Positions 1,236 through 60,444 of a stretch of DNA of 64,000 nt are shown one piece after another (positions within the stretch are counted from its first letter, which is position 1; each line of letters begins with the position of its first letter). This stretch comes from Nitrosopumilus sp. GTDB lineage: Archaea; Thermoproteota; Nitrososphaeria; Nitrososphaerales; Nitrosopumilaceae. The stretch is from assembly GCA_965218785.1 (NCBI GenBank), contig OZ244650.1:864001-928000 (forward strand), written 5' to 3'. A program made the position numbers and the translations under genes. A model generated the notes under the pieces. That model saw only the letters and a program-made list of their open reading frames with translations, searched no databases and was not told the DNA's origin.

Positions 1236-4200
1236 TTGAGTGCCGTCCGAGACGGCGCATTTGAGATGGTATTAAAGAAGATAAGAACAGGATCCAAGAC
1301 TCCTGTAGATCTTGGCATTAAATTTGAAAAGATCATGTTTGATTTTTTTAAAACCGACAGCGTATACAAAAAACGATTTCAAAAGGTCTGGATGTGGAGT
1401 GACTGGGCTAGAGATAACAAGATCAAAGAAGAACTTGGAACTTCTCATGACCTAGGGGTAGATATCGTAGCTCAAGAATATGGCGGTACACTCTGCGCCA
1501 TCCAGTGCAAGTGTTATGACGATGACAATACACTTGGCAAAGAGGATATCGATAGTTTTATTGCAGCAGGAAAATCATATCATCTCTCCAACTATGTGCT
1601 GGCTTGTACAGGACCAATCAACGATAACGCAATGGCTATGCTAAGGGGTGTAAGATGCAATATAATCACAAAGCAACACCTAAAAAACAGCAGTGTAGAC
1701 TGGTCAGAGTACCCAAAGATTAAATCAAAAAAACCCAAGAAACTACGGGATTATCAACAGTTTGCAATGACTGATGTGGTACAAGGTTTTGAGAAATCAT
1801 CAAGAGGCAAGATGATAATGGCATGTGGTACGGGCAAGACGTTTGTATCATTAAAAATTGCTGAAAAACTGGCAGGCAAGGGAGGTATAGTTTTGTATCT
1901 GGTACCCTCGATCTCTTTGATTCTACAAAGTATGAGGGAATGGTCTGATAACTCTGGCATTCCACACTATTACATGGCAGTATGCTCGGACAAGAGCATC
2001 AGAAATTCAGAGAATGGAACCTTGACTGAATTGGAGACTCCGGCATCAACTGATATAACAGAACTATCAGAGAAACTGGCAAAAATATCCAACAATACCA
2101 TGAACGTGATTTTTTCCACATATCACTCAATCGAGGTAGTCATGAGCGCCATGACTGACAAAAAGTTTGATCTCATACTGTGTGATGAGGCTCACAGAAC
2201 TACGGGAATTGGAGATACAAAAAAAGAATCATTTATGACCATGGTTCATCATGAGCACAACATAAAATCCAAACGACGACTCTACATGACGGCAACCCCA
2301 AGAATATACACAGATATCATCAAAGCCAAGGCACAGCAAAAGGAAAAAGTAATCATCTCAATGGATGACGAATCTCTTTATGGTTCGGTCTTTCATAATC
2401 TGAGCTTTTATGATGCTGTCCACAAGTATCATGCCCTGTCTGATTTCAAAGTACGCGTAGCCATCATGGATGGTGATACCATGAGTAGAATGATCCAGCA
2501 TTCTACTGCCAATGATGAAAATCTGGTTCCACTAAATGAAAAAACATTGATGGCATCCGTATGGCATGCTTTGGAGTATCCTGGGAGTGGGGATGAAAAA
2601 GAGTTGCTACAGCGAGTTATAGTGTTTTGTGACATGATAAACTCATCCAAACTGTTTGCAGGAGAGGAACTGGTATACAAAAAAGACATTCGTGAAGATC
2701 CTGAAAAACTGGGTAAATCCAGAGAGATTGACAGGTATAGATCATTTGGCAAGGTAGTCGAGCATATCCAAAAGATAAAAAATGATCCTGATTCTACCAA
2801 ATCTGAAGTAAGGCACGTGGATGGGGGCGACAATGCCCAGAGACGGCGGCGGGAACTTGACTGGCTTCGAGACAGCCAGGATGATCCGAGCACATGCCGG
2901 ATTCTATCAAACGCCCGATGTTTATCTGAAGGCATAGATGTTCCCTCTCTGGACGGCGTAGTATTTATGAATCCGCGAAAATCAGTTGTGGATGTGGTGC
3001 AGGCTGTTGGTCGAGTCATGCGCCGATCGCCTGGAAAAGAATACGGATATGTTATACTTCCTGTTGCCATACCTGCCGGCATCAAAGTCGAGGAAGCCCT
3101 CAGTGACAGTAAACATTTCAAGGTGGTGTGGCAGGTACTCAACGCACTTCGATCCCATGATCCAAATCTTGCCGAAGAGATTAATCGACTGATACTGGAG
3201 AGACCCAATCCCAATGACAATGAGATAACAAACAGGATAATAATCAGACATGCAAACAGCCACAATCTCTATTCCCTTGACATGCCTGCTGATAAAATGA
3301 TAGAGGGTATTACTACCAAGCTTATTGAAAAGGTCGGTGACATTAATTATTTTGACAGGTATGGTCAAAAACTCGGGGATGCATCACATACAATCGAGGC
3401 AAGAATCAAAAATAAAATAGATTCATCTGATTCAATAAAAAACGAGATCGGACAGTTCCACGATTCCCTCAAGAATATGATAAATGACTCCATTACAATT
3501 GACTCTACAACACAGGTCATAGCACAGCATATCGTACTGTCAAGAGTTTTTGATGCGTTGTTTCAAGGCGAGTTTACATCACATAATCCAATATCCATCG
3601 AGTTTGATAAGATTGCAAAGAAACTGGGGTTAAAAGAAGAGCTTGAGGATCTAGAGGGATTCTATGATGACGTAAAAACAGAGTTAAAGGAGATAAAGAG
3701 CAGAGAGGCAAGACAGAATTTTATTAAAAAGATTTATGGAAACTTTTTTGAGAGTGCCAACAAAAAGGAAACAGAACAACACGGTGTGGTGTATACTCCT
3801 GTGGAACTGATTGATTTTATCATTAACAGTGTACAGTATCTCTTAAAGAAACACTTCAAGACGGAATTCAACCAGAGAGCGGTAAAGGTACTAGAACCGT
3901 TTGCTGGGACGGGCACATTTATCACCCGACTCTTGGAATCTGGTCTGATCACCGACAACCTGTATGAAAAATACAAAAATGATTTGTATGCAAATGAGCT
4001 TATTTTGCTGGCATATTACATTGCAACAGTAAACATAGAGACTACATATTCGAGTCTCCGAAAAGGTGGAAGATACGTTCCGTTTGATGGGATTAGTTAT
4101 ACAGATACACTACGGATAAATCCACAGTACCGGGATGATGAACGTCATAGACATGAAAAGACTACACTTGATGAGATATTCGAGATAGCTCATAAGAGGA

Positions 4201-5969
4201 TACGGCATCAGAGAGGAATCCATGTTCATGTACTTATGGGAAACCCACCGTATTCGGCAAAACAAAGCGACTATAATGATCAAAATCCGAATGTTTCATA
4301 TCCTGAATTAGATAAACGAATAGAAAATACCTATGTAAAAAAATCAAATGCAACCCACAAAGGTTCACTTTATGATTCCTATATACGCGCCATTCGTTGG
4401 GCATCTGACAGAATTGGCAAGTCGGGAATAATCGCGTTTGTCACAAACGCTAGTTTTATACGATCAGAGACAGCAGCAGGAATACGTGCCTGCCTTGCAG
4501 AGGAATTCAATGAGGTATGGTGTTTTGATTTGAGAGGAAATCAAAGAACTCAAGGTGAAGTTTCAAAGAAAGAAGGGGGCAAGATATTTGGTTCTGGTTC
4601 ACGTGCCCCCGTAGCAATAACAATCCTAATCAAAAACCCAAAAAAGAATGATTGCACCATACATTACAAGAATATTGGTAATTATCACAACAGAGAGAAA
4701 AAGTTGGAGATAATAAAAAATACAAAATCTGTACAAGGAATACGAGATTGGCAAGCAATAACCCCTGATAGACACAATGATTGGCTTGACCAGCGCGGTG
4801 ACGAGTTTTCAAAGTATATGTCTATTGGAAACAAGAATGTCAAGACAGGTAAAAGTGGAAGTGCTATATTTAGAATGTATTCACGTGGAATAGCAACAGA
4901 TCGTGATGTGTGGGCATATAATTCATCTGAAAAAGAATTATCAAATAACATGAAGTGCCATATTAATTATTGTAATAATCAAAATCCAGATAACCCCGTC
5001 ATCAATCCAAAACAAGGTAAATGGAGTAGAGGATTACGTAGTAAAATTAAAACAATTAAACCAAAATTTGAACAAAATAAAATTAGAATTGCTTTATACA
5101 GACCATTTTTCAAACAATATCTCTATTATGATTCTACAAGAATTTTTAACGAAGAAGTTTCTCAAATACCTAAATTCTTCCCAGAAAATTATTCAAAAAA
5201 CCTGATCATCATATTACCATACAAATCTACTGTATATTTTTCTACATTTGTAACTGATATTACACCTGATCTTAATATAATTACTGCCAATCAATGTTTC
5301 CCGCTATACACATACGAAAACAAAAAAGACAAGAAAATCAATATTATTGATTCCATACTACAACAATACCAGACACATTATAACGACAAAAAAATAACCA
5401 AAAAAGACATCTTCTACTATACATACGGCATCCTGCATCATCCAGCATACAAAAAGAAATTTGCAAACAATCTCATTAGAGAACTGCCGAACATACCAAT
5501 GGCTCCAGATTTTTGGAAGTTTTGCAATGCAGGAGAAAAACTAGTTGACTTGCATCTGAATTTTGATTCATGTAATAAATACAGTCTTGGTAAACCAAAA
5601 CATAAATTCAATAAATTCACAAAGATCTCATTTGGAACAAAAAAGCTCAAAAAAGATGGCAGAGACAAGACAGTATCGGATAAAACAAGACTCCGCATTG
5701 ATGGTGTCGAGATATTTGACAGTATACCGGAGATAAAATATTCAGTAAACGGAAGGACCCCTTTGGAGTGGATAATAGATAGGCACCGTATTACGACGGA
5801 CAAAGACAGTGGAATTACAAATGATTCCTGTTCTGGAGTTGACATTATATCAGTAATAAAGAGAGCCGTACATGTGGGAGTAGAATCTGATAAAATAATA
5901 TCACAACTGCCTAAAGAATTTGAACCAAAGAACTGGACTCCTGCAAAGACAGGTCTTGACAAATTCTAA
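1236..5969 (+). CDS. Type ISP single-polypeptide restriction-modification enzyme (LlaGI/LlaBIII-like): Mrr-type nuclease, SF2 helicase, N6-adenine MTase, TRD
   Basis: 1577 aa; D..IQCK nuclease motif, MACGTGKT, DEAH, NARCLSEGIDVP, QAVGRVMR, EPFAGTGTF, NPPY, C-terminal YRPF/NGRTPLEW ISP signature. Confidence 0.95.
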   Translation: MSAVRDGAFEMVLKKIRTGSKTPVDLGIKFEKIMFDFFKTDSVYKKRFQKVWMWSDWARDNKIKEELGTSHDLGVDIVAQEYGGTLCAIQCKCYDDDNTLGKEDIDSFIAAGKSYHLSNYVLACTGPINDNAMAMLRGVRCNIITKQHLKNSSVDWSEYPKIKSKKPKKLRDYQQFAMTDVVQGFEKSSRGKMIMACGTGKTFVSLKIAEKLAGKGGIVLYLVPSISLILQSMREWSDNSGIPHYYMAVCSDKSIRNSENGTLTELETPASTDITELSEKLAKISNNTMNVIFSTYHSIEVVMSAMTDKKFDLILCDEAHRTTGIGDTKKESFMTMVHHEHNIKSKRRLYMTATPRIYTDIIKAKAQQKEKVIISMDDESLYGSVFHNLSFYDAVHKYHALSDFKVRVAIMDGDTMSRMIQHSTANDENLVPLNEKTLMASVWHALEYPGSGDEKELLQRVIVFCDMINSSKLFAGEELVYKKDIREDPEKLGKSREIDRYRSFGKVVEHIQKIKNDPDSTKSEVRHVDGGDNAQRRRRELDWLRDSQDDPSTCRILSNARCLSEGIDVPSLDGVVFMNPRKSVVDVVQAVGRVMRRSPGKEYGYVILPVAIPAGIKVEEALSDSKHFKVVWQVLNALRSHDPNLAEEINRLILERPNPNDNEITNRIIIRHANSHNLYSLDMPADKMIEGITTKLIEKVGDINYFDRYGQKLGDASHTIEARIKNKIDSSDSIKNEIGQFHDSLKNMINDSITIDSTTQVIAQHIVLSRVFDALFQGEFTSHNPISIEFDKIAKKLGLKEELEDLEGFYDDVKTELKEIKSREARQNFIKKIYGNFFESANKKETEQHGVVYTPVELIDFIINSVQYLLKKHFKTEFNQRAVKVLEPFAGTGTFITRLLESGLITDNLYEKYKNDLYANELILLAYYIATVNIETTYSSLRKGGRYVPFDGISYTDTLRINPQYRDDERHRHEKTTLDEIFEIAHKRIRHQRGIHVHVLMGNPPYSAKQSDYNDQNPNVSYPELDKRIENTYVKKSNATHKGSLYDSYIRAIRWASDRIGKSGIIAFVTNASFIRSETAAGIRACLAEEFNEVWCFDLRGNQRTQGEVSKKEGGKIFGSGSRAPVAITILIKNPKKNDCTIHYKNIGNYHNREKKLEIIKNTKSVQGIRDWQAITPDRHNDWLDQRGDEFSKYMSIGNKNVKTGKSGSAIFRMYSRGIATDRDVWAYNSSEKELSNNMKCHINYCNNQNPDNPVINPKQGKWSRGLRSKIKTIKPKFEQNKIRIALYRPFFKQYLYYDSTRIFNEEVSQIPKFFPENYSKNLIIILPYKSTVYFSTFVTDITPDLNIITANQCFPLYTYENKKDKKINIIDSILQQYQTHYNDKKITKKDIFYYTYGILHHPAYKKKFANNLIRELPNIPMAPDFWKFCNAGEKLVDLHLNFDSCNKYSLGKPKHKFNKFTKISFGTKKLKKDGRDKTVSDKTRLRIDGVEIFDSIPEIKYSVNGRTPLEWIIDRHRITTDKDSGITNDSCSGVDIISVIKRAVHVGVESDKIISQLPKEFEPKNWTPAKTGLDKF

Positions 5970-10033: not shown

Positions 10034-10921
10034 ATGCTTTCTGCATGGATTCGCATAATCAGGGTAAGATTCCTTCTTGCATCAGTAATTGCAGTATCTG
10101 CCGGACTGGCAATTAACTGGCGGCAAAACGCCACCCTAGACCCACTCGATGCGGCTCTGACGTTTGCAGGCGTGCTGGCACTGCACGCAAGCGTGGACCT
10201 GCTAAATGATTTCTGGGATTTTAAACGAGGCATTGACACGCAAACCAAGAGGACCAAAATGAGCGGCGGTACAGGAGTCCTACCAGAGGGATTACTCTCA
10301 CCATCCTCCGTATACCGTGCAGGAATCGCATTTTTGATAATCGGCACGATAATCGGAAGTTATTTTGTCATTACAGACGGTATTACCATCGCAGTAATCC
10401 TGGGATTTGCAATCATCTCAATCTATTTTTATTCGACTAAAATCGTCGATTCCGGACTGGGAGAATTCTTTGTTGCACTAAAAGGATCCATGATAGTCAT
10501 CGGGGCATCCTTTATCCAGTCAGGTCAGATCACCACAGAATCAATCCTGGGAGGCATCATCATAGGCATTCTATCCTCACTGGTTCTTTTTATTACATCA
10601 TTTCCTGATCATGATGCTGATAAATCCAAAGGCAGGAAAACTCTAGTCATCACCGCAGGAAAAAAGAGATCCGCAAAACTTTTCTGGCTGTTCCCACTAC
10701 TCTCATATACCGTAATCCTTACCGGCGTATCCACAAACCTGTTCCCGGCACTATCATTAATCACACTTGTTACACTCCCCATAATTATAAAATCCGGGCT
10801 GGAACTGCACAAAAACTATGACTCTGTTGAGGATATCATTCCTGCCATGTCACTAACTTTGAAATTCAGCAGAATCACAGGTGCGTTGTTTGTAGTCAGT
10901 CTCTTGCTGGATATAACATAG
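10034..10921 (+). CDS. menA: UbiA-family prenyltransferase (MenA-like)
   Basis: NDFWDFKRGID and FPDHDADKSKGRKTL aspartate-rich motifs; multi-TM; likely start MLSAW. Confidence 0.85.
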   Translation: MLSAWIRIIRVRFLLASVIAVSAGLAINWRQNATLDPLDAALTFAGVLALHASVDLLNDFWDFKRGIDTQTKRTKMSGGTGVLPEGLLSPSSVYRAGIAFLIIGTIIGSYFVITDGITIAVILGFAIISIYFYSTKIVDSGLGEFFVALKGSMIVIGASFIQSGQITTESILGGIIIGILSSLVLFITSFPDHDADKSKGRKTLVITAGKKRSAKLFWLFPLLSYTVILTGVSTNLFPALSLITLVTLPIIIKSGLELHKNYDSVEDIIPAMSLTLKFSRITGALFVVSLLLDIT

Positions 10922-12107: not shown

Positions 12108-12473
12108 TTGTCTGATAAAATATATGACTATACTGGCATCTGTGATTCCATCTTATCCATTGATCCGAAAATCCGATTCGCAGGCGTGATCAACGAACGT
12201 GGCAGGCTGGTGGCAGGAGGCATGAAAGAGAATGTAAAACCGCTAGAGACAGAAAAAGACGATGAGATGATCTTCATGGAGCTTGCATTACGTGTAAAAA
12301 TGAGAAAAGAGTTTGATAAGCAGCTTGGTCCTGTGAACTTTGCCATGGCCTCACGCCAGCGCGCCCTTGCAATTAGCGTCATACTCAACGATGACATCCT
12401 GTATGTGGTATCAGAACCCGATGCCGATTATGGTTCCCTCCCAAAGAAGATTCTTGGAATAGTTGATGCGTAA
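12108..12473 (+). CDS. Thaumarchaeal roadblock-like protein (DUF6659-type)
   Basis: IRFAGVINERGRLVAGG...LGPVNF pattern. Confidence 0.8.
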   Translation: MSDKIYDYTGICDSILSIDPKIRFAGVINERGRLVAGGMKENVKPLETEKDDEMIFMELALRVKMRKEFDKQLGPVNFAMASRQRALAISVILNDDILYVVSEPDADYGSLPKKILGIVDA

Positions 12474-21462: not shown

Positions 21463-21580
21463 TTAGACCTTGTTGGTGCATTTTGGTAATTCATGACTCA
21501 TGAGTTTCGGGGGTTCAAATCCCTCTCTATACGCTAGATCCCGATAACTTCAGTAACCCTCAAGATGTATTATTGGTGTC
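21463..21580 (+). repeat. Internally deleted copy of the palindrome + tRNA-Leu-like unit at 36934-37130
   Basis: TTAGAC..TGGTGCATTTTGGT joined to ATGACTCATGAGTTTCGGGGGTTCAAATCCC...TCCCG.TAACTT, colinear with the 36.9-37.1 kb unit. Confidence 0.8.
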
Positions 21581-22885: not shown

Positions 22886-22915
22886 TATGTCAGATCATTA
22901 TAACGCACCAGACTC
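22886..22915 (+). repeat. Right half of the 47-bp palindromic mini-element
   Basis: TCAGATCATTATAACGCACCAGACTC matches the consensus TCAGATCAYT....GCACCAGAAYC. Confidence 0.55.
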
Positions 22916-23364: not shown

Positions 23365-23944
23365 CTAAAGTATGTCAATACAGGCTCCCGTGAAACGCTT
23401 GCGGCCATGCGTCTGGTGCCGTATGTAGGTCTCTTCAAACCAGTCTTCCTGACAGTTTTTGTGACGGTAGGATCTATCTGAATGACTCGGTCTTGGATTG
23501 TGATGTAGTTTGTTGCGAGATAATCCTACATAGGACACCGACTTTCTTGTGCTTGTCTTTTTCATAATTATACTGGCCACAGTCATCTTATCCTTCCCTC
23601 CAACGTTTTTTTAAAAGCGTCTATGACTGGTCTGCTCACATATGATTCTCTTGAGGGTTTCATTCTCCTTTTGTAGCACGCGTTCTGGGCTCTGTTTGGC
23701 GGTTCCGATTACAGACATCTTGCCACCGTTGATGAACTTCCCCCTCCACTGATAGAATGTCTGGGGATGTATGTTGTACTTGCGACACAGTTCTGCCGTG
23801 CTGATCCTGGTGTTTATGGATTCCAGGATGATTCTTGCCTTTTCCTGTGGGGTGAATTTGCTCTTTACCATTGGTGTTTTACCTCTTAACCTGCTCAAAA
23901 AGTGTATGTATGCAAGCGGTCTCATTCTAGCGGGGTCCCCACCA
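23365..23944 (-). mobile_element. IS3-family remnant: left end, orfA (23611-23871) and decayed orfB start
   Basis: FTPQEKARII..STAELCRKYNIHPQTFYQWR HTH; A7 slippery run at the orfA/orfB junction; end begins TGGTGGGGACCCC. Confidence 0.85.
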
Positions 23945-32147: not shown

Positions 32148-33761
32148 TTACTTTTCTGATGCTGCCCTGATAAATTCCACAAATGACTCTTCTGGAAATC
32201 CGGGCCTGCTGTTAAATTCCGGATGAAATTGAACCCCGAGATAGAATTTATGTGATGGAATCTCAAGCATCTCCATTCTTTTCCCCCCGTCACTCTCGGC
32301 TGAAAATATCATCCCTTTTTTTTCAAATTCTGAAATGTACTCTTTGTTAACTTCGTATCTGTGTCTGTGACGTTTGCTGATACTCGACGAGTTGTATATT
32401 TTTTGTGCAACTGTTCCCTTCTTGATTGAAATTTCATTTGCACCCAATCTAAGGGATCCACCCATGCCTGAAACCTCCTTTTGTTCTGGAAGCAGGTCTA
32501 TTATGGGATTTTTGGCATCCCTCTTAATTTCAGTCGAATTTGCATCCTCGAGATTCAGCACGTTTCTTCCAAATGCGATTGCAGCTAGCTGAAATCCAAA
32601 GCATATTCCAAGGTATGGTATATTTTTTTCACGTGCAAAGTCGGCAGTTTGAATGATTCCCTCAGAGCCCCTGGTTCCAAATCCTCCGGGAACCAGAATC
32701 CCATCATAGTTTGACAAGACACCCCAGTCTGTGACTGTTTCTGAATCTATCCAGTCAATCTCTACTGCCTTTCTTATTTGGGCGCCTGCATGTTTTAGTG
32801 CGTGATTTACACTCACATAACTGTCTGCAAGTGTGACATATTTTCCCACCATTGCAATTTTTATCTTCTGTCCTTCGTAATTGATCATGTTCTGTACTAC
32901 CGTGTTCCACCTGTCCCAATTGGCAGAGGCGTTGACCATTCCTACCTTGCCAAACTTTGTAAACATTGAATCCATGATTCCCTGATCATAAAGCATTTGT
33001 GGCACCTCAAAGATTGATTTTGCATCATGACATGATAACACATTTCCCGTCGGTACGTTTGTAAACATTCCAATCTTCTTTTTTGTCTTTTCCTCCAGCT
33101 GTGTCGTACATCTGACTGCCAAAAAGTCCGGCTGAATGCCTATCCTTCGCAGTTCTTGAACGCTGTGCTGGGTCGGCTTTGTCTTTTGCTCCCCTACCAC
33201 GTCTAGTGACGGTGCTAGTGTCACGTGAATAAATATTATCCTTTGCTGCTCCTCCTCGACTTTCATCTGCCTGAGTGCCTCCAAAAACGGCAGTGACTCG
33301 ATGTCTCCCACTGTTCCACCGCACTCTACGATCAAAAAATCCAGTTTTTCATCGTCTGCGATTTTCTTGATTCTGTTTTTGATTTCATCAGTTACATGGG
33401 GAATAATCTGAACGCATACCCCCAGATACTCCCCCCTTCTTTCTGCTTCAATTACTGAAGAGTAAACCTGCGCCGTTGTAATGTTGTGGCTTTTTGGAAT
33501 ATTCTGATTGAGGAATCTTTCATAATTGCCAATATCCATGTCGCACTCCCCGCCGTCTTCTGTTACAAATACCTCGCCGTGTGCCACCGGATTCATCGTT
33601 CCGGCATCATAGTTCAGATATGGATCTATCTTGACACAGGAGACTTTTTGATCTGCCAGCTGGAGTAGTTTTGCAATCGAGGAAGTCGTTACGCCCTTTC
33701 CAAGGCCGGACATTACGCCGCCTGTGACAAAAATAAATTTCGTCTGACTTTGATTGTCCAT
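32148..33761 (-). CDS. pyrG: CTP synthase
   Basis: GGVMSGLGKG, KTKPTQHSV, GICFG, RHRHRYE, QFHPE. Confidence 0.98.
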   Translation of the reverse strand: MDNQSQTKFIFVTGGVMSGLGKGVTTSSIAKLLQLADQKVSCVKIDPYLNYDAGTMNPVAHGEVFVTEDGGECDMDIGNYERFLNQNIPKSHNITTAQVYSSVIEAERRGEYLGVCVQIIPHVTDEIKNRIKKIADDEKLDFLIVECGGTVGDIESLPFLEALRQMKVEEEQQRIIFIHVTLAPSLDVVGEQKTKPTQHSVQELRRIGIQPDFLAVRCTTQLEEKTKKKIGMFTNVPTGNVLSCHDAKSIFEVPQMLYDQGIMDSMFTKFGKVGMVNASANWDRWNTVVQNMINYEGQKIKIAMVGKYVTLADSYVSVNHALKHAGAQIRKAVEIDWIDSETVTDWGVLSNYDGILVPGGFGTRGSEGIIQTADFAREKNIPYLGICFGFQLAAIAFGRNVLNLEDANSTEIKRDAKNPIIDLLPEQKEVSGMGGSLRLGANEISIKKGTVAQKIYNSSSISKRHRHRYEVNKEYISEFEKKGMIFSAESDGGKRMEMLEIPSHKFYLGVQFHPEFNSRPGFPEESFVEFIRAASEK

Positions 33762-34103
33762 CTTGCTATCTTTTGTCTGGGACATATCAACTGTATTTTA
33801 AAGGACTTTTTAACATTTTTTGATGTGGGATCTGTCTGATGGATATGAAATACCATCTTCGGGATTGAAGTTTTGTGTCTGTTTGGCGCCTTTTTATTGA
33901 GGCGTTTTAAATGGGGTTTCCCATGGTTAACATCCTTGGGTGCTCAAATACAGGTCTTCTTGGAATTGATAGAGAGGTTCTGGTGTAAAATGGTGATTTA
34001 TATCACAAATATTGGATTTTATGTTATTTTGTCGATTTAAAATGAACTCTATTGTTTTTAGTACATCCCTTTACAAGGAAAATTAGGAACAAGATCCATC
34101 ACG

Positions 34104-34119
34104 ATAACCCGACAGAACC
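34104..34119 (-). repeat. Orphan IS6-type inverted-repeat tip
   Basis: ATAACCCGACAGAACC matches the outer 16 bp of the TIR of the 34173-35781 element. Confidence 0.7.
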
Positions 34120-34324
34120 ATGAATGTAAATTAATAAATCATAGTATTTCTATATAAAAACACGGAATCTGGGGTTCTGTCAGGTTATAGACACCTGAAA
34201 AGATGTCCAAGGCTCCAAGTGCATTCATAACCAGCAAAATATGGAAACGATTGATTTAGAGTTTGTAAATTTACAGAATTTCCACAGGTGATGATTTATT
34301 AAGTTGGATTTTTGATATTCGTAA

Positions 34325-34768
34325 ATGGAACAATGGAATCTGGGAATTTTTACAATTATGTCTGCAATGGTTACGGTAATAGGAATTATTCTAGCTTCTC
34401 GTTTTGTATATGTAGATAATAGATACAGTAACATAATTAAAAACAAAGAAGTGGAGGTGCAAAAATTAAATGAAGTCAGAGATAAATCAGAATCTGATAG
34501 TCAGGAGATTATTACGAAACAATTGATGATTAACTTGATAATAGGAGAATACAAATCTAAACGTAAAGATAATAGAAGAATTGGAATAATATTGGATCTG
34601 ATTTCTTTATTTGCCATCATAATATTGGGAACAGTGACTACTTTGGGTTATTTTGGAAATTTTTATAATTTTATATTACTTATCATCTTATTGATATTCT
34701 TGTTTTCCCTACCAACACTGAATTTTTTGTTCTATGTAAAACATGTAAACAAATATTCGTCAATCTAG
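34325..34768 (+). CDS. Hypothetical 3-TM membrane protein (transposon cargo)
   Basis: 147 aa, very AT-rich, three hydrophobic helices. Confidence 0.7.
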   Translation: MEQWNLGIFTIMSAMVTVIGIILASRFVYVDNRYSNIIKNKEVEVQKLNEVRDKSESDSQEIITKQLMINLIIGEYKSKRKDNRRIGIILDLISLFAIIILGTVTTLGYFGNFYNFILLIILLIFLFSLPTLNFLFYVKHVNKYSSI

Positions 34769-35242
34769 TGAATTTTTTATTGTACTATTGACGGTGTATT
34801 TTGGATATGCCTCATAAATCTGTTTTAACATTTCAATGAAATTCATGGTTTGTAATTGTCTAATCTTGTCATTAATTTTCATCATTTCGTCTGTGGTGTT
34901 GTAGAATAATTTGCGCCATTTAGTACGTCCTTTAAGTGTAAGCGTATACTGGTTGTAGTTTCTTTCTTTATCAATTATCTTTTTAGCTAATATCTCATCT
35001 GTAATACATTCATCAATATCTTGGTTTAACTGTTTACTGTATGGTCCAAAATGATGAGGTATCCAATCATCATAAAAATTAAAAGTAGGATAGGTTTTTT
35101 TTAATTTTGTTAATTCCTTTTGATATTGTTTGAATAATAAAAAACCATATTTTTGAAATCTTGTAGAACCTCGTATGATATTGTCATTGATTATGAATAA
35201 TACTCGCTCTTCTGATTTTAATACAATTGTATTTGTTTCCAT
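34760..35242 (-). CDS. Panacea/SocA/YwgA-like wHTH protein (transposon cargo)
   Basis: GSTRFQKYGFL, FGPYSKQL..DI, YTLTLKG, IYEAYP. Confidence 0.75.
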   Translation of the reverse strand: METNTIVLKSEERVLFIINDNIIRGSTRFQKYGFLLFKQYQKELTKLKKTYPTFNFYDDWIPHHFGPYSKQLNQDIDECITDEILAKKIIDKERNYNQYTLTLKGRTKWRKLFYNTTDEMMKINDKIRQLQTMNFIEMLKQIYEAYPKYTVNSTIKNSLD

Positions 35243-35364
35243 TATTTATTCGTCCACACCAGTAATTGCCTTTTATCTTTGATTTTTTGCATGTCTAGAA
35301 TATGTATTATTATGCTTATGTGCTTTGTGCATTAATACACATATTCCGATGAATGCGGCGAGGA

Positions 35365-35411
35365 GATTCTGGTGCAAAACAATGATTAGATTACCAAAAT
35401 GCATCAGAATC
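35365..35411 (-). mobile_element. 47-bp palindromic IS6-type mini-element
   Basis: GATTCTGGTGCA...TGCATCAGAATC; same length and core as 36942-36988. Confidence 0.8.
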
Positions 35412-35550
35412 GATCATTAGATAGAATCACAAGCAGGAATTCTTTTAAAATGTCTAATTTACTGAAATTCATTAAATAAGATGGTTTTACCCATTTTAGC
35501 ATTAATTTGTCCTTACAATAGCCCAAGGTCTAATAGCATTAAGTAGCGAC

Positions 35551-35595
35551 TCCAATACAGTAGAATCCAACACAGTGGAATTCAATACGGTAGAA
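35551..35595 (+). repeat. 15-bp tandem repeat x3 (encodes SNTVE) in a small frameshifted ORF (about 35481-35685)
   Basis: TCCAATACAGTAGAA / TCCAACACAGTGGAA / TTCAATACGGTAGAA. Confidence 0.7.
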
Positions 35596-35781
35596 CCCAT
35601 TAGATCATATTATGAAAATGGAAAATTAACAACTGAATTTCATATTGGAAAAAAATATCAGGGTAGTAAATACATAAAAAAATAATCAAGTCAAAATATT
35701 ATTAATAATCTAGTCTATTTTTTAATAATCTTTATTGTGCATAAAAATCATCTTTTCAGGTGTCTATAACCCGACAAAATC

Positions 35782-35997
35782 GAATCTGGCAATACTAGTA
35801 AATTTACTATTCATATTCAAAGAGAGGATGATGGCGGATATAGCGGTCGGTGCCTAGAAATTCCGGCGGCTATAAGTCAGGGCAATTCATTAGATGAATT
35901 AAAAAAGAATGTGCAAGAAGCCATACAACTATCTTTAGAATATTTAAAAGATAAAGCCAAAAAAGAAAACAAGGAATTAATCGAGATTTATACATAA
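35782..35997 (+). pseudogene. hicB: HicB antitoxin separated from its 5' end by the transposon insertion
   Basis: ESGNTSKFTIHIQREDDGGYSGRCLEIPAAISQGNSLDEL; the TSD lies in codons 2-4. Confidence 0.88.
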
Positions 35998-36000
35998 TAA

Positions 36001-36216
36001 TTGACTCTTAGAAATCACAAATAGCGTGATGTTTATCGGGTTTTAGTTGATCATGGATTTTATGTTGATAGACAACGAGGGGATCACATGCACATGATCA
36101 ACTCTGCTGGTAGACATGTTGTTCTTGTAAAAACTAGTCCGATTAAAATCGGCACTTTGAAAAATATCTTAATTCAGGCTGACATAACACAAGAAGATTT
36201 TATTAAAGAAGTTTAG
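36001..36216 (+). pseudogene. hicA: HicA toxin with a premature TAG at codon 8
   Basis: MTLRNHK*RDVYRVL..GFYVDRQRGDH...IKIGTLKNIL; the paralogue at 21999 has Trp (TGG) at this position. Confidence 0.9.
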
Positions 36217-36369
36217 AAAAATTCAAATTCATTTAATCCAATATTGATAATTTTTATAATAATACTGGTAGAATGAATAGTAAACTGTCAATTCATCCTG
36301 TATCTAAAATATTTTCTGCCGTATTTAACATCAGGCTGTGCCGCCACATTTGATATTTTCCGGTCTGCG

Positions 36370-36710
36370 TAGTGTAGACAGTTTGGTCTTTTCTTTGACT
36401 TCCATTTCACTGCTAAATGACTAATTAACAAAGATGGAACAGTTGTACAGATTTCTTTTGCTTCAATTGGAGGAGTTGCATCATTTCTAATGTGAGATGC
36501 TGCAACTGTAACATATCCCATTGCCTCACCTTTAATTTTTAGCTGATACATTCGAATTATATTCTCTAACATCACCTAAAGAAATGTTTTGATAGTAATC
36601 TGTAAATTCTGGTACATCGGATTCAAAATCATCCTCTAACAAATCTGATTCTTGAACTTGCAGTATTCATATTCTATTGAATTGAAATCTATCTTTGGTA
36701 AAGATAATTT
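36370..36710 (-). pseudogene. GNAT acetyltransferase toxin remnant (frameshifted)
   Basis: DFESDVPEFTDY..., then GYVTVAASHI and VPSLLISHLAV in another frame; the acetyl-CoA motif is lost. Confidence 0.65.
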
Positions 36711-36717
36711 TTAAAAA

Positions 36718-36867
36718 TTAGAAATTTGATTTAGGATTGGCTTTTTCTACGTGTTCTTGAGCTCTTTTCAAATTTGCCATCTGTTCGGGGGTTGCTCCTG
36801 TTTTCAAGTTTTCTTGTAATTTTCTAGTTTGCATTTTATCAAATGGTTTAACGTCTCGCAATGCCAT
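36718..36867 (-). CDS. 49-aa protein, putative antitoxin of the GNAT module
   Basis: MALRDVKPFDKMQTRKLQENLKTGATPEQMANLKRAQE..., directly upstream of the GNAT remnant, with a TATA-like box upstream. Confidence 0.55.
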   Translation of the reverse strand: MALRDVKPFDKMQTRKLQENLKTGATPEQMANLKRAQEHVEKANPKSNF

Positions 36868-36941
36868 AGTAATATGAATATAAGAAATGTTATAAAAAAA
36901 TACTATGAGATTATCGGGATCTGATTATATAGGTTAGACTT

Positions 36942-36988
36942 GATTCTGGTGCATTTTGGTGATCAGATCACTAGAATCCACCAGAACC
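36942..36988 (+). mobile_element. 47-bp palindromic IS6-type mini-element
   Basis: GATTCTGGTGCATTTTGGTGATCAGATCACTAGAATCCACCAGAACC is an imperfect palindrome. Confidence 0.85.
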
Positions 36989-36990
36989 AT

Positions 36991-37082
36991 GCAGAGGCTG
37001 TCTAGTCTGGTATGTCGTTTGCCTTAAGAGTGGATGACTGTCATGAGTTTCGGGGGGTTCAAATCCCCCCTTCCTCTCTGCG
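36991..37082 (+). pseudogene. Decayed tRNA-Leu(TAA)-like sequence
   Basis: GCAGAGG...CTCTGC acceptor ends, TAGTCTGGT D-loop, CTTAAGA anticodon loop, long variable arm, GGGGGTTCAAATCCCCC T-arm; stems mismatched. Confidence 0.75.
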
Positions 37083-37112
37083 TCAGCTCCCGCTAACTTA
37101 CCGGAGCATCCT

Positions 37113-37152
37113 AGGATGTTTTGGTGATCAGATTATCATTTGTATCAGAACC
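37113..37152 (+). repeat. Degenerate second copy of the 47-bp mini-element
   Basis: TTTTGGTGATCAGAT...TGTATCAGAACC. Confidence 0.65.
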
Positions 37153-37211
37153 ACATAAAATTTCAATCTGGAGAAGATCATATTTTGTGCCATATCTGCA
37201 TACTTGGTACC

Positions 37212-37401
37212 TATATCGCTATTAGAAATAGTATTTAAAACAAAACGATATATCGCTATCCAAAATAGTATTTAAAACAAAACGATATATCGCTATCCAA
37301 AATAGTATTTAAAACAAAACGATATATCGCTATCCAAAATAGTATTTAAAACAAAACGATATATCGCTATCCAAAATAGTATTTAAAACAAAACGATATA
37401 T
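37212..37401. repeat. 37-bp tandem repeat x5 in a promoter region
   Basis: Unit TATATCGCTATCCAAAATAGTATTTAAAACAAAACGA; GTATTTAAAA recurs at 37231, 37268, 37305, 37342 and 37379; no spacers. Confidence 0.97.
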
Positions 37402-37434
37402 TTTTATTAAAAATGGTGTCTAACAAACCACATA

Positions 37435-38058
37435 ATGAAAAAGGAGATCCGTACTAATATCAAAGATAGGGTGGCAAGAATACTGTTTAATGAACCGGGC
37501 GGAACACTGACAAAATATCAAATAGCAAAATTAGCAGGTAGTGGGTATCCGTGGATTCATAGTCTTTTGAAAAAATTAGAACAGCAGGGAATCATTCAGA
37601 AAACCAAAGTAAAGAATTTTGAATCATTGATGGAATGGTGGAAACAATGTCAACCCATTCCAAAAAATAGAGAATATATGATTCAAAGACCGTTAGAATT
37701 ATTAAAACAGACCAATCTGGAATACGCCCTTACAACATACCAGGCAGAAAATATGGTACAAAATTACCTATTTCCAACACGAACCGATATCTATATCCGT
37801 CAATCAGACAAACTAAAGTGGCACAAACTGCTAGTTCAAAACGGACTGGTCGGTAGGGGAAACATGAGGATTTTCATTGGAGATGATCATGTATTTTACA
37901 AATCGTTCAAAGTAGACGGCTTTTCACTGGTGTCAGTACCTCAAATAATGTCTGATTTGTATCGGGAGGGCAATGTTGGTATCGAGGCAGCAGATATGCT
38001 GTTAAAAAAGGTGGAGAAAGGCGCTCTGCAAAATCAAGTCAGACATATCAAAATATAA
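37435..38058 (+). CDS. AbiEi-like type IV antitoxin / wHTH regulator (no cognate toxin downstream)
   Basis: N-terminal wHTH; YALTTYQAE, TDIYI, GNMRI, VSVPQIMSDLY..G...EAADML. Confidence 0.78.
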   Translation: MKKEIRTNIKDRVARILFNEPGGTLTKYQIAKLAGSGYPWIHSLLKKLEQQGIIQKTKVKNFESLMEWWKQCQPIPKNREYMIQRPLELLKQTNLEYALTTYQAENMVQNYLFPTRTDIYIRQSDKLKWHKLLVQNGLVGRGNMRIFIGDDHVFYKSFKVDGFSLVSVPQIMSDLYREGNVGIEAADMLLKKVEKGALQNQVRHIKI

Positions 38059-38219
38059 TTTAATCAGTGCTTTCAATACTTTTTTTCTAAACATTTTAAA
38101 CAAATTATCGGATGTAATTAACCCGAAAAGATTCCCGTCCGGTACTGCTTAAATTGAAATATCCGTTACCCGTCTGCTATTTCCGTATGTCTGCTTTTAG
38201 GATTTTGATGAATATGTAG

Positions 38220-38759
38220 TTATACCATGCCGGCTTCTGCATTTGAATCTACAGAAACCGAAATAGACGTATTGTGGATGGCGTGAATTATGGGATCTCC
38301 CAAATCATTACTATACTCCGGATACAGATAAGCCGTATTAAGCGTAGTTTTAGTTCTTAACATGACGGGTGTCTCCCCCTGTAATACATATTCATTCCAG
38401 GGTTCATCTGTTTGTTCTTTTATTATATATGAAAACAGATCTTGTTTTTTACTGGAATTGATAAACTGAGGCTGCCAACGTTTTGCGGATTTTATTTTTT
38501 CACCCTGATTGACATATCCCACCATTGGATGATAGGATATAAAATATCTCATATGATCAGGAATGTTTACCATGTTGGGAACATTTGCAAATTTTTCATC
38601 ACGAACTTTTAAAATATTGATAGGTATGTTTGCAACACGCAAAAACCCCTTTACTGATGGATGTTCAATTTTGTACATATTGTATTCGAATTTTTTAACC
38701 TTAAACAGAATTGAATCTGCATCCTTTTTGGGATTGATGGAAATAGAGCGGTCTGACAT
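38220..38759 (-). CDS. Hypothetical protein with an internally duplicated beta-rich module
   Basis: FEYNMYKIE...FLRV and EPWNEYVLQ...MLRTK...LGDPII. Confidence 0.7.
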   Translation of the reverse strand: MSDRSISINPKKDADSILFKVKKFEYNMYKIEHPSVKGFLRVANIPINILKVRDEKFANVPNMVNIPDHMRYFISYHPMVGYVNQGEKIKSAKRWQPQFINSSKKQDLFSYIIKEQTDEPWNEYVLQGETPVMLRTKTTLNTAYLYPEYSNDLGDPIIHAIHNTSISVSVDSNAEAGMV

Positions 38760-38762
38760 TTC

Positions 38763-39152
38763 TCATTGACCTGGTTTTATCATGGGTTTCTGCAGATGTT
38801 TTAGATCCGTTGTGGATTCTCCGGTGAATTCTTTATCATTATACTTTGAGATATTTTCAGAAATATTGGATGTAATCTCTGCATCAAAGGAATCAAGAAA
38901 AACAGTTTCCCCATCCACGCTGACCTGAGCCGTTCTCTGTATTGTACCTGCCTGATATGCTGATCTTTGCAAATCCTCATATTTTTTCTCAGAGAACATG
39001 CTATAATGACACATTGGGCAGCGCAAACCATCAAAAGCACCCAGAAAACTACCATCCTCAAAATAGGGTACAAGACTTTTAGCAAGTGCGGTTTTACAAT
39101 CCGGACAACCAAATGCCCCTGATTTTAACTGAATTGGGTCTTTTTGTGTCAA
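38763..39152 (-). CDS. YgiT/MqsA-type zinc-finger protein
   Basis: CPDC...F.G.FDGLRCPMC..SMF. Confidence 0.7.
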   Translation of the reverse strand: MTQKDPIQLKSGAFGCPDCKTALAKSLVPYFEDGSFLGAFDGLRCPMCHYSMFSEKKYEDLQRSAYQAGTIQRTAQVSVDGETVFLDSFDAEITSNISENISKYNDKEFTGESTTDLKHLQKPMIKPGQ

Positions 39153-39463
39153 GTTGCTAGTCCTACTATCTCAGGTAATTATTTAATATAAATGGTTTTT
39201 AAAAATAATTTACAGGTGTATTGAGAAGCATTACAATCAAGCCTGATTTTATCCGATAAGCACATTTTTTATTTTTGTCGCCTTGAAGTACATCCTACTT
39301 TTGTTTTGGGATGCCGTGTTTGATTCTGACAGGATTTTATTTAACGCGTCTGGCAGCATGTCATAAACAACATGCAGATCGTATTTGGCTACCTGGATCC
39401 CAAGCATGATTGTCAAACCCGCCTCAATAGATTGCGATCATAGAATCTGCCAAAATGATCTTA

Positions 39464-39610
39464 TCATTTCAAGATCTTTACAACTGTAAAAAAATCCCTT
39501 GTTTTTTTAACGACTATACAGGATTTCAGAGGATCTTTTTTATTTTTCCAATGCGTATCATACATGAAGACCTCGAGTTCGGTGGCCATATCTGGGGTGA
39601 CCTCCATCAT
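39464..39610 (-). CDS. Small hypothetical protein
   Basis: MMEVTPDMATELEVFMYDTHWK..., just downstream of trpA. Confidence 0.4.
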   Translation of the reverse strand: MMEVTPDMATELEVFMYDTHWKNKKDPLKSCIVVKKTRDFFTVVKILK

Positions 39611-39632
39611 ATCAGATAATTTGGCCGCCACT

Positions 39633-40448
39633 CTATGACGATTCAAGCATTGTCTGTCTCTTGAGACTTTTTGTAAATGATGCAATTTTTGCCTCCAGTT
39701 TATTTTGGGGTGTTTTTTCAATCAGTTTCAAGTATGCACTTCCGACGATTACCGCATCTGCACCGGCACTGATGTATCTTTTTACATCCTCCGGAGTTGA
39801 GACGCCAAAACCCACCCCCACCGGGAGTCCTCCTCCTTTCCTGGTGTATCTTTTGACATCCCTGATTGCCTTTAGCGTGTAATCTTTAATCCCCGTCTTG
39901 ACACCTGTCGTTCCGTAAACTGCTACAAGGTATAGAAATCCAGTCGATGCCTTGGCAATCTCCCGTATTCTTGTCTTTGTGGTATTGGGCGATATCAAAA
40001 ATATCGTGTCTGCCTTGTTCTTTGCCGCGTGCAGGTACTCTTTTGACTCCTCTACTGACATGTCTGGGAGAATAAACCCGTCAATTCCCGCCCCTGTCGC
40101 TTTTGAAATAAATTCCTGATATCCCATGTGATACAGTATGTTGGTGTACGTCATTAGTACCAGTGGGATATCAGTCTCCTTTCTGATCTTTTTTACAAGA
40201 TTCAGAAACTTGTCCACAGTAGTGCCTTTTTCAAGTGATACGGTACCTGCATTCTGAATTACCGGTCCGTCTGCCAGGGGATCTGAAAATGGAAAGCCCA
40301 GTTCTATGATGTCTGCCCCGCCCTTTACCAGCCCCCTTACTGCCGTAATTGTCGCCCTCTCATTTGGGAATCCGGCCATGATATATGAAATCAGCGCCTT
40401 TTGATTTCCTGCCTCCATCTCTGCAAACTTTTCCTTAATCTTTGACAT
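39633..40448 (-). CDS. trpA: Tryptophan synthase alpha chain
   Basis: [33 protein letters not shown]. Confidence 0.98.
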
Positions 40449-56434: not shown

Positions 56435-57307
56435 TCATAGATATTTTTTATTTTCCCTCAAGTATTTTGTCACAAACCATTTTACAAATATAAAATCGTT
56501 ATTTTTTAGGCAGGACGACTCTAGTTTTTTGATGTATGTTTGTTTTTCTTTTGGCAGAATATTCATCATGGGATATCTGTTCCTGTGCAATACCCGCAGC
56601 ATCAACATCCTTCCGATCCTCCCATTTCCATCAATAAACGGATGTATCAACTCGAATCTTTTGTGAAATATTGCAGATAACTGTACTGGATTAACATCCG
56701 TCTTGACTTTGTCGTACCATTTTAGCAATTCCCCCACGTCTGAAATGACATCTGCCCATGGAGCATACTCTGTCTTCCCCGGATAGGGTGCCACATCTTC
56801 TCTTCTAAAACTTCCTGCGTTGTTGGTGTCTGTCCTTTCAAATAATTTTCCGTGCCAGTCAAGAATCAATTTTTTAGAAATATCCTTGCTGGGATTTAGC
56901 ATGTCATCGAAAATTACTGCCATTTGTTCTGCCTCTATAATATCCTCGGTGGATGTATCTTTGGGTGACAGATGATCCTCCAATAACTTTTTTGTCTGCC
57001 CTAACGTCATGGTACTTCCCTCAATTCTTTGCGTGCTGTAGATGTGGATAACTTTGAATCCATGATGTTCTGATTTGAGGATTTTCGGATCAGTTTTTTT
57101 AGAAAATCCAGAATATTTTTTTTTAATTTTTTCTAACAGTGGGTTTTTTTCATCTTGAAAAATCCCCCCTTCAAATTCTTTTTCCAGTCGTTCTAGATTG
57201 TCAGGTATTTTTCTGCCCAGATATCTTTCATATTGTTTTATGCCTGTCTTGTGAATTAGATAATAATATTTACCATTACCTTTAGTTCGTTTAATTGTTG
57301 ATACCAT
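56435..57307 (-). CDS. Fic-family AMPylase (class II-like)
   Basis: HPFIDGNGRIGR catalytic motif; TQRIEG matches the (S/T)xxxE(G/N) inhibitory motif. Confidence 0.93.
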   Translation of the reverse strand: MVSTIKRTKGNGKYYYLIHKTGIKQYERYLGRKIPDNLERLEKEFEGGIFQDEKNPLLEKIKKKYSGFSKKTDPKILKSEHHGFKVIHIYSTQRIEGSTMTLGQTKKLLEDHLSPKDTSTEDIIEAEQMAVIFDDMLNPSKDISKKLILDWHGKLFERTDTNNAGSFRREDVAPYPGKTEYAPWADVISDVGELLKWYDKVKTDVNPVQLSAIFHKRFELIHPFIDGNGRIGRMLMLRVLHRNRYPMMNILPKEKQTYIKKLESSCLKNNDFIFVKWFVTKYLRENKKYL

Positions 57308-59262: not shown

Positions 59263-59580
59263 CTAGGGGGCTTTCAGCTCTATTTCAGAATTACATGTGG
59301 GCAGATTGCCTGACTCGTCCCTGAATTGCTGGATTAACCGAATCTGGCGTTCTTTTGGATTGTCTGTAAACTCCCTTTGATATGACTGGGTTTTTTGCAT
59401 GCATTCGTTTCCCTCAAAATCCGTATCCACGTATTTTGTGAATCTCTCTTGCAGGTTTTCTGACTGGCCAATGTATATCACCTCTTTTTTCCTGTCATAC
59501 AATACGTATACGCCGGGAATTGATTTTACAAATTTGGCACTCTCCAGCCAAATCCTCATTTTATCCTCAAGTAACTGCAT
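59263..59580 (-). CDS. GIY-YIG nuclease family protein
   Basis: PGVYVLY..VIYIGQS.NLQERF...LPTCN. Confidence 0.85.
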   Translation of the reverse strand: MQLLEDKMRIWLESAKFVKSIPGVYVLYDRKKEVIYIGQSENLQERFTKYVDTDFEGNECMQKTQSYQREFTDNPKERQIRLIQQFRDESGNLPTCNSEIELKAP

Positions 59581-59851: not shown

Positions 59852-60301
59852 GGTTCTGTGGATTCTAGTGATCTGATCCCCAAAATGCACCAGAACTCTC
59901 CATTACGACAAATACAGGTTTTAGAGGCGTAATAGAGAGAGAAAGTCAGTTGGAAATAGTGTGGACTGGGAATCGAACCCACGCCTAAGAGGTTTTAACT
60001 CATGATGCTACCATTACACCAAGAGCCCACCAGGTTTATTAAAAAATACAAAGTAATAATGTTGAGGTTTCAACTCTAAAACGCGCTAATTACATTGGCC
60101 TGGTTTTCCTTTCTGCCATCAGCCCACAGCTTTTGAAGAGAAAGGAAAACAAATTTTTGTTATATCTGAGGATTTGATGCAGGGTAGGTTGTTTCAACTA
60201 GTAAAAGATTGTCACAAACCGGCCCTGCAATTTTTCTCTATCTGGTTTTATTCCCAGGTTCTGTGGATTCTAGTGATCTGATCCCCAAAATGCACCAGAT
60301 C
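59852..60301. mobile_element. Miniature pseudo-compound transposon: two direct mini-elements around 360 bp of cargo
   Basis: 45 identical bp at 59850-59894 and 60255-60299; flanks CTGCCACA (59844-59851) and CTGTCACA (60302-60309) match at 7/8. Confidence 0.82.
59959..60028 (-). pseudogene. tRNA-like sequence lacking a matching 3' acceptor strand
   Basis: GGGCTCT TG GTGT AATGGTA GCAT C ATGAG TTAAAAC CTCTT AGGC GTGGG TTCGATT CCCAG gives a canonical D/anticodon/T-arm layout. Confidence 0.7.
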
Positions 60302-60444
60302 CTGTCACATTCTTTTCTAAAGAAGATCGGCCATGTTTTAAATCCTGCCGCATATGCTGATCCGGATTGAAGCCAAACCCTGCAAAATCCCTGATATCAC
60401 AAGAACCTTCATACTTTTAATATTGTGAAAAAACATGATTAATA

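Follow-up and report, generated by a model that had tools for sequence, protein, structure and literature searches.

Mobile insertion cassettes (MICs) are bounded by the ends of an insertion sequence (IS), lack a transposase and carry passenger genes, as in the case of MIC231 of Bacillus cereus. Further cassettes of this kind reportedly carry qnr genes. Here we describe a 1,609-bp element at positions 34173-35781 of a 64-kb stretch of contig OZ244650.1 (hereafter the window, meaning all 64,000 nucleotides analysed, to which coordinates refer unless a locus is named). In all likelihood it is a non-autonomous transposon of the MIC type, in which IS-type ends, likely of the IS6 family, enclose a pre-existing gene pair. 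Members of IS6 are described as generating 8-bp target repeats and as having inverted repeats (IRs) of 15-20 bp with GG tips and conserved cTGTt and caaa motifs (PMC7986276). Archaeal members have longer terminal inverted repeats (TIRs), GG or GA tips and mostly 8-bp target-site duplications (TSDs), and one Sulfolobus member has a TIR of 33/34 bp (PMC6807381). [quoted passage not shown]

For the cargo, the closest described systems are PanAT toxin-antitoxin pairs. Three of the nine validated PanT toxins that are neutralised by Panacea proteins are membrane-disrupting, and one membrane-disrupting PanT combines a coiled-coil N-terminus with C-terminal transmembrane helices; a convergent gene layout is not discussed in the available main text (PMC8832971). 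The mobilome of ammonia-oxidising archaea is poorly charted. A survey of the thaumarchaeal mobilome catalogues IS elements, and the word MITE is absent from its main text as available (PMC6563490).

Ends, target duplication and the search for a transposase

The element is enclosed by two 33-bp TIRs, and an identical octamer abuts each arm exactly (Table 1). The left arm and the reverse-complemented right arm agree at 30 of 33 positions; positions 2, 5 and 10 differ and the inner 23 nt are perfect, and an inverted-repeat search scores the same arms as 31 nt at 94%. Within the window the 23-nt inner core is found at these two sites and nowhere else; the expectation is 0.01, and none of 100 shuffles reached two occurrences. 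Likewise, when the surrounding 3 kb is searched for inverted pairs of 33 nt, the best one reaches 30 matches, compared with at most 25 and an average of 22.7 over 60 shuffles. A preliminary description of the locus, made from the sequence, had proposed 33-bp TIRs, a perfect 8-bp TSD and movement as a unit, and all three are borne out, the last by the exact duplication at both arms. It had also given the arms a shared start, which fits the left arm, starting GGTTCTGT, and not the right, starting GATTTTGT. Among six end-bounded units checked in the window for a flanking repeat of 4 nt or more, the 1.6-kb element was the only one to have such a repeat. The conceptual empty site, in which the octamer stands once, reads ...ACACGGAATCTGGCAATACT.... 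As an observation in its own right, copies of GAATCTGG are located at positions 3936, 12728, 20680, 34165, 34336, 35782, 57558, 58865 and 59340.

No remnant of a transposase is present inside the element. Forty-one stop-to-stop frames of at least 25 aa overlap 34100-35800, and 36 of these were scanned against Pfam at E <= 1 (the others being three frames left of 34138 and the two long ORFs, which were scanned separately). None of the 36 matched a transposase family. The rows returned were all weak or irrelevant, namely Phage_Gene47 (E 0.053), NSUN5 (0.11), MORN_2 (0.046) and the HicB-like frame of the right flank, and the two long ORFs fall in non-transposase families. Ten transposases from other loci (four IS6-type, IS3 OrfA and OrfB, three DDE_Tnp_1-type and one DDE_Tnp_4) were additionally used as tblastn queries; over 33900-36000 the best match had an E value of 0.85 across 18 residues, and over the whole window the same queries found only an IS3-family remnant at 23385-23925. 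The transposase-less character given in the preliminary description therefore stands, and its proposed tBLASTn check for a decayed internal transposase came out negative. Its 'small decayed ORF' is not retained, having as its sole support the weak MORN_2 match, which lies on a 59-aa frame at 35506-35682.

The base composition of the element is foreign. It lies in a low-GC (guanine plus cytosine) island of approximately 33900-39600 with 33% GC, flanked by pyrG (32148-33785, minus strand) and trpA (39633-40448, minus strand); these and neighbouring core genes have 43-47% GC. The GC content of the element is 28.8%, compared with about 35% in the remainder of the island. At third codon positions the cargo genes have 25-28% GC, versus 45-51% in five neighbouring core genes. 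The cargo itself is intact.

Table 1. Coordinates of the element, its parts and related features in the window
Feature	Position	Strand	Basis or remark
Partial mini-element / IS6-like tip GGTTCTGGTGTAAAAT	33976..34008	+	nhmmer E 0.034; 14/16 vs B. mycoides IS6 IR
Solo end tip GGTTCTGTCGGGTTAT, 53 bp left of element	34104..34119	-	pattern match, inverted-repeat search
Left TSD copy GAATCTGG	34165..34172		exact flank repeat, offset 0/0
Left 33-bp TIR GGTTCTGTCAGGTTATAGACACCTGAAAAGATG, tip GGTTCTGTCAGGTTAT	34173..34205	+	read directly; matches IS6-family inverted repeats
ORF147, 147-aa membrane protein, three hydrophobic helices	34325..34768	+	hydrophobic segments, AF2 model
ORF160, 160 aa, probable divergent Panacea (SocA-like) winged-helix protein	34760..35242	-	homology, model, PADLOC
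Nested 47-bp palindromic mini-element, IS6/IS240-like tips (GATTCTGGTGCAAAAC...)	35365..35411	+	14/16 vs B. mycoides IS6 IR; no TSD
15-bp tandem repeat, 3.3 copies	35551..35599		within the 506-bp non-coding stretch of the element
Right 33-bp TIR, reverse complement GATTTTGTCGGGTTATAGACACCTGAAAAGATG, inward tip GATTTTGTCGGGTTAT	35749..35781	-	read directly
Right TSD copy GAATCTGG	35782..35789		exact, abuts right arm
hicB-like remnant (target context)	35770-35997	+	HicB_lk_antitox E 2.2e-5, 25.1 bits, below 27-bit cut-off
hicA-like gene (target context)	36025-36216	+	HicA_toxin E 2.8e-13, 50.2 bits
Full mini-elements elsewhere in window	36942-36988, 59852-59897, 60257-60302		46-47 bp
Partial mini-elements elsewhere in window	22890-22914, 37119-37152, 21474-21490		

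The convergent cargo genes

The two long ORFs of the element, ORF147 and ORF160, are convergent and overlap by 9 nt at their 3' ends, which agrees with the earlier description of a protein with three transmembrane segments facing a Panacea-like protein. From sequence and model comparisons, ORF160 is concluded to be a probable divergent protein of the Panacea superfamily, because it is transitively homologous to PF13274 (SocA_Panacea) and because leads from Foldseek, NCBIfam, Atlas and PADLOC agree. A profile search of 1.84 billion representatives yielded 2,192 relatives at E <= 0.001, of which 376 reached E <= 1e-10. Among 93 distant relatives (those from P0090 onward among the 150 matches listed, with most short fragments excluded), PF13274 was matched by 15 at E <= 0.001, six of them above the 25.7-bit cut-off. 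The AF2 model of ORF160 has a pLDDT of 92.6. Its top Foldseek neighbour in the PDB is chain 7yk3_B of the DarTG toxin-antitoxin complex (E 0.012, probability 0.99), followed by MarR/PadR winged-helix proteins, and the NCBIfam lead is the DarG C-terminus (E 0.03). In the Atlas, a cluster at score 0.95 carries SocA_Panacea on 21% of its members. PADLOC assigns ORF160 to PDC-M19A (E 3.6e-11); a literature search for PDC-M19 found nothing.

The closer family of ORF160, collected by a word-indexed search, has 50 members of about 150-175 aa, and its alignment contains 8 invariant and 23 nearly invariant columns. None of the 50 members matches a Pfam family, no catalytic nuclease or recombinase domain is detectable in them by Pfam, and a profile search of solved structures with the family gave only weak matches to MarR-type winged-helix proteins (best E 0.12). 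For 16 of the 50 homologues the longest contig is 1.1-2.3 kb, near the size of the element; such short contigs could stem from fragmented assemblies, or from mobile units bounded by repeats in other populations.

The AF2 model of ORF147 has a pLDDT of 87.2 and consists of three long helices. Sub-threshold matches to SLATT_1 were found in two of nine family members, with a best E value of 0.0044. Foldseek gave no PDB match at E <= 0.001 (best E 0.6), and the top Atlas score of 0.75 is too weak to use. A word-indexed search with the ORF147 profile found at least 11 proteins, which under-reports the family seen at the loci described next. In a structure-based test for binding between ORF160 and ORF147, run without controls, the score was 0.27 against a mark of 0.32.

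Scanning nucleotide contigs with the ORF160 alignment matched 32 stretches, eight of which encode relatives, at seven distinct loci of related Nitrosopumilaceae, the best being 66% identical. In each of the seven, a convergent membrane ORF homologous to ORF147 comes after the ORF160 homologue, with 3' overlaps of 9, 9, 9, 17, 12, 34 and 17 nt. None of the seven has an element tip beside the module, and in none does an inverted repeat bracket it; tip matches with up to four mismatches elsewhere in the loci are as frequent as chance predicts, about 1.5 per 20-kb locus. At the DNA level, the closest locus (L001) resembles the window only over 34332-34425 and 34541-35209, inside the two ORFs. The TIRs are therefore specific to the copy in the window, and the pair is a pre-existing module, putatively of conflict type, that would have been captured between IS ends, since it is found in all seven loci without these repeats. 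A blastn search with the whole element against plasmid and phage collections gave no match.

The related modules often sit in mobile or defensive company. Transposase genes lie within about 3 kb of the module in four of the seven loci: IS3 and DDE_Tnp_1 types in L002, DDE_Tnp_1 in L007, a DDE_Tnp_1_5 fragment and an IS6-type gene in L006, and in L003 an adjoining DDE_Tnp_4 IS with perfect 20-nt inverted repeats (10847-10866 and 12320-12339 of that locus). Defence or defence-candidate proteins identified by PADLOC adjoin the module in three of seven, namely PDC-M33A/B at 6541-9098 of L002 (E 1e-72 and 3e-38), a SIR2 protein at 6381-7496 of L006 (E 5e-29) and PDC-S18 at 1610-2035 of L005 (E 1e-27). 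By analogy with PanAT, we read the pair as a toxin-antitoxin or defence module in which ORF147 would be a membrane-acting putative toxin and ORF160 a Panacea-type putative neutraliser. More tentatively, the pair could be an undescribed archaeal toxin-antitoxin or anti-virus module, possibly coupled via its overlapping transcripts, that was caught at the point of being packaged between IS6-type ends; we regard this as a possibility on the doubtful side.

Family of the ends and competing explanations

On balance the ends are probably of the IS6 type, judging from their sequence. As a reference, IS6 inverted repeats were read by a repeat search in three annotated plasmid copies: GGTTCTGTTGCAAAGTT in Enterococcus faecium, GGTTCTGGTGCAAAAA in Bacillus mycoides and the pair GGGCTCTGTCGCATTAA / GGGTTCTGTCGCATTAA in Escherichia coli. 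The end tips of the element (GGTTCTGTC...) match the inverted repeats of all three. The tip of the large TIR (GGTTCTGTCAGG) and a solo tip located to its left (GGTTCTGTCGGG) have their first 9-10 bases in common with the E. coli copy. A GG tip and the cTGT motif are found in the left arm and the solo tip, while the right arm has a GA tip and keeps TGT. Predicted IS6-type transposases also exist in the Nitrosopumilaceae lineage. For example, a 355-aa ORF with DDE_Tnp_IS240 is located in the related locus L006, at a distance of 0.8 kb from the homologous cargo module. In 1,182 records it has matches to plasmid genes that bear the annotation 'IS6 family transposase'; no convincing TIR or matching ends were found around it. 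In the supplementary table of thaumarchaeal IS elements (file 4), 'IS6' occurs 35 times (PMC6563490). The preliminary description had called the locus direct evidence of IS6-type movement. The IS6-type part of that claim is supported by the tip matches to three copies, the 8-bp TSD and the transposases of the lineage; what it called 'direct evidence' of mobilisation in trans is an inference from anatomy.

Related tips are found around and within the element. The solo tip reported earlier as a third IR tip is real: it fits the pattern GGTTCTGTCRGGTTAT with no mismatches and is identical to neither arm, with one difference to the left-arm tip and two to the right-arm tip. Three tip hits at the 3-mismatch setting are not significant on their own, because 5 of 100 shuffles reach three. 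The solo tip may be the right end of a 144-bp relic that spans 33976-34119. The nested 47-bp mini-element is likewise real and belongs to a family of 46-47-bp palindromes, composed of two arms of about 23 nt with IS6/IS240-like tips (GRTTCTGGTGCA...). These mini-elements carry GCAAAA, unlike the large TIR. The heptamer GGTTCTG occurs 18 times in the window versus 6.7 expected.

A possible route for the insertion can be outlined. A DDE transposase encoded elsewhere would have attached to both ends and placed the complete 1.6-kb unit into a target cut with an 8-bp stagger. The enzyme would most likely have been of the IS6 type, as found in related Nitrosopumilaceae. In that case the route would be formation of a cointegrate followed by its resolution through recombination between the two element copies, the mechanism described for the family in PMC7986276. 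The insertion would have landed in the low-GC island between pyrG and trpA, at a locus where mini-elements with related tips, and a solo end, were already present. The cargo may have been captured from a chromosomal or mobile context, either because two ends came to flank the pair or because a passenger-carrying IS lost its transposase. The element itself did not build its cargo; packaging between IS ends would make the pair transposable. Mobilisation in trans is itself deduced from anatomy.

Several observations weigh against parts of this account. Assignment to IS6 is likely and yet unproven, because neither a cognate transposase nor a sister copy was found: an IS6 transposase is absent from the 64-kb window by Pfam and tblastn, and the search for further copies of the TIR, which returned none beyond the element, was confined to the window and not carried out genome-wide. 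The right tip of the element is GA with two further changes. The 33-bp TIR has only its first 10-11 bases in common with IS6 inverted repeats; it reads ...TGTCAGGTTATAG..., without the IS6 caaa motif, and its 33 bp compare with a usual 15-20 bp. None of the four full mini-elements has a TSD, and the 144-bp relic has none either. Copies of the octamer GAATCTGG exceed expectation in the window, and its sequence is similar to that of the mini-element tip. On the side of the cargo, ORF160 itself reaches no Pfam family, ORF147 has SLATT matches that remain sub-threshold and no structural match, and the convergent layout of the pair is unlike the bicistronic operon of type II toxin-antitoxin pairs.

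There are alternative explanations for the same anatomy. The first keeps the element as described and derives its ends from another DDE family with 8-bp TSDs (of the ISL3, IS1595, IS256 or IS66 type), moving by cut-and-paste or copy-paste with no cointegrate. ISL3, for example, makes 8-bp repeats and has long TIRs that begin with GG. The length of the large TIR, its lack of caaa and the restriction of its IS6 likeness to the first 10-11 bases would all suit such a family. A clean, single insertion flanked by a TSD is also the direct product of cut-and-paste, whereas IS6 requires a second, recombinational step. Rows of the ISL3 type stand beside IS6 rows in the thaumarchaeal IS table as available (PMC6563490). 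However, over 10 bases GGTTCTGTCG shows no difference from the right inverted repeat of one annotated IS6 copy, and the co-resident mini-elements match the IS240-type IS6 repeat at 14 of 16 positions, caaa included. For archaeal IS6 members, longer TIRs of up to 33/34 bp and GG or GA tips are reported (PMC6807381). We consider an origin from another family unlikely, although it deserves to be taken seriously, and IS6-type ends as the more probable assignment.

The second alternative is that the unit never transposed as a whole, and that two independent solo ends or mini-elements happen to flank a resident gene pair, the identity of the octamers being a coincidence or a target preference. End fragments are indeed numerous at the locus, and a tip-like stretch lies about 55 bp inside the left arm (34228-34243). 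The octamer GAATCTGG has nine copies in the window, compared with 2.9 expected and with no shuffle of 100 reaching nine, and a single position separates it from the mini-element tip GATTCTGG. For this reason the match between the flanks is a little less remarkable than odds of 1 in 65,536 would imply, and the octamer may be a preferred target or the mark of degraded ends. Independent ends would nevertheless have to share a perfect 23-nt core that is found nowhere else in the window and be abutted exactly by identical octamers. The difference in GC content applies to the whole segment and not to the genes alone (28.8% versus about 35% for the rest of the island), the pair is absent from this position in the comparable loci fetched, and the nearest DNA relative lies in a different context. 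This explanation is accordingly improbable, and insertion of a complete MIC-type unit is preferred.

Least probable of all, to the point of being scarcely credible, is that the element is autonomous in a non-canonical way, with a conserved protein such as the winged-helix ORF160 mediating or guiding mobility and the TIRs serving as its binding sites: the winged-helix fold with MarR/PadR-like neighbours, the transposases that often adjoin homologues (four of seven loci) and the 16 of 50 homologues whose longest contig is at most 2.3 kb, which could reflect repeat-bounded units, would be in keeping with it, but none of the seven homologous modules has these tips or bracketing inverted repeats, no catalytic nuclease or recombinase domain is detectable, and sequence relationships tie the family to Panacea antitoxin domains. 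Three simpler candidates were rejected outright: an integrase-type island with att sites (no integrase, and a repeat of only 8 bp), a compound transposon built from two complete IS copies (none flanks the segment) and a dead IS (no transposase remnant inside).

Genomic surroundings and comparison with described systems

The window looks like that of an archaeal, Nitrosopumilaceae-like ammonia oxidiser, based on its predicted proteins, which include a threonyl-tRNA synthetase with an archaeal editing domain, DUF6659 proteins, Alba and deoxyhypusine synthase. For the cargo proteins, the nearest relatives carry the names Nitrosopumilus, Nitrosopumilaceae or Cenarchaeum. The element sits 13 nt upstream of the first HicB-profile residue of the hicB-like frame. 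Reading the flanks, no in-frame ATG, GTG or TTG was found for hicB before the domain, neither in the occupied nor in the conceptual empty site. The stop-to-stop frame of the hicA-like gene spans the entire HicA profile; the match begins directly after a stop codon, the earliest in-frame start being at residue 22. The tandem hicB/hicA toxin-antitoxin pair thus looks, from these frames, to have decayed already.

Further right in the island, a tRNA-like remnant occupies 36990-37112, with a full mini-element on one side and a partial one on the other. It has a perfect T-arm (GGGGGGTTCAAATCCCCCC) together with a loop reading CUUAAGA, and may be the relic of an integration site. ARAGORN called no tRNA in the window. 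An Rfam search over 33000-40000 gave nothing above gathering thresholds, the sole relevant match being one of 17 nt to the T-arm of the tmRNA model (E 0.0058). Directly upstream of a 207-aa helix-turn-helix ORF at 37435-38058 (HTH_Crp_2, E 4.9e-5) there is a 37-bp tandem repeat at 37212-37401 (5.1 copies, 98% identity), and the layout resembles the iterons and initiator of a plasmid or virus remnant.

Other conflict-related and mobile genes are found at a distance. The IS3-family remnant at 23385-23925 (minus strand) comprises an OrfA with HTH_Tnp_1 (E 2.4e-13) and an OrfB that was matched over just 30 aa (tblastn E 1.1e-4). A Type ISP restriction-modification enzyme is encoded as a single polypeptide of 1,577 aa at 1236-5969 (plus strand), with Mrr_cat_2, ResIII, ISP coupler, N6_Mtase and Type_ISP_C. 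A Fic/DOC-domain protein at 56435-57307 (minus strand, E 1.6e-19) and a GIY-YIG fragment at 59263-59580 (minus strand) lie near two mini-element copies and make up a further patch of conflict and mobile genes.

Set against described systems, the element resembles MITEs in being non-autonomous and bounded by TIRs, and the window additionally holds the 46-47-bp palindromic mini-elements with related tips. Unlike MITEs, however, it measures 1,609 bp and has two intact genes, so it is neither miniature nor non-coding, and the mini-elements, for their part, have no TSD. The likeness to PanAT lies in the transitive link of ORF160 to PF13274, its pairing with a small membrane-spanning protein, which is also a feature of three of the nine validated PanAT pairs (PMC8832971), and the occurrence of the pair in mobile and defence-island contexts. 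The differences are that ORF160 falls below every Pfam threshold, that the host is archaeal and that the genes are convergent and overlap at their 3' ends, in the window as in all seven loci, unlike the bicistronic PanAT. The most interesting lead from this locus is the conserved two-gene module, a good candidate for a toxin-antitoxin or defence system of archaea that would be new.

With the IS6/IS26 family the element has in common the 8-bp TSD, the GG tip, the cTGT motif, tip identity to three annotated copies and the clustering of ends at one locus. In contrast to that family, it has no internal DDE_Tnp_IS240 transposase, it is 1,609 bp rather than about 800 bp long, and its 33-bp TIR is without caaa. 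Should the assignment hold, the IS6 group would gain a gene-carrying, transposase-less form. If, in addition, the cargo were indeed an undescribed conflict module, its movement by an IS6-type cassette that lacks a transposase would be a first case among ammonia-oxidising archaea. As a clean, datable insertion, it would indicate that IS ends alone can ferry host-range-relevant genes in streamlined genomes.

The closest comparison is with MICs. The element has every structural hallmark of one: end repeats, an abutting TSD, no transposase and passenger ORFs. As in MICs, the inverted ends are of the IS type and the intact passenger genes are unrelated to transposition. Mobilisation in trans is presumed in both cases. 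It differs from known MICs in its Nitrosopumilaceae-like archaeal host, in its IS6-like rather than IS4/IS231-type ends and in its cargo of a convergent Panacea-like protein and membrane protein. It is a known kind of hitch-hiking element in a host group, and with a cargo, that are new.

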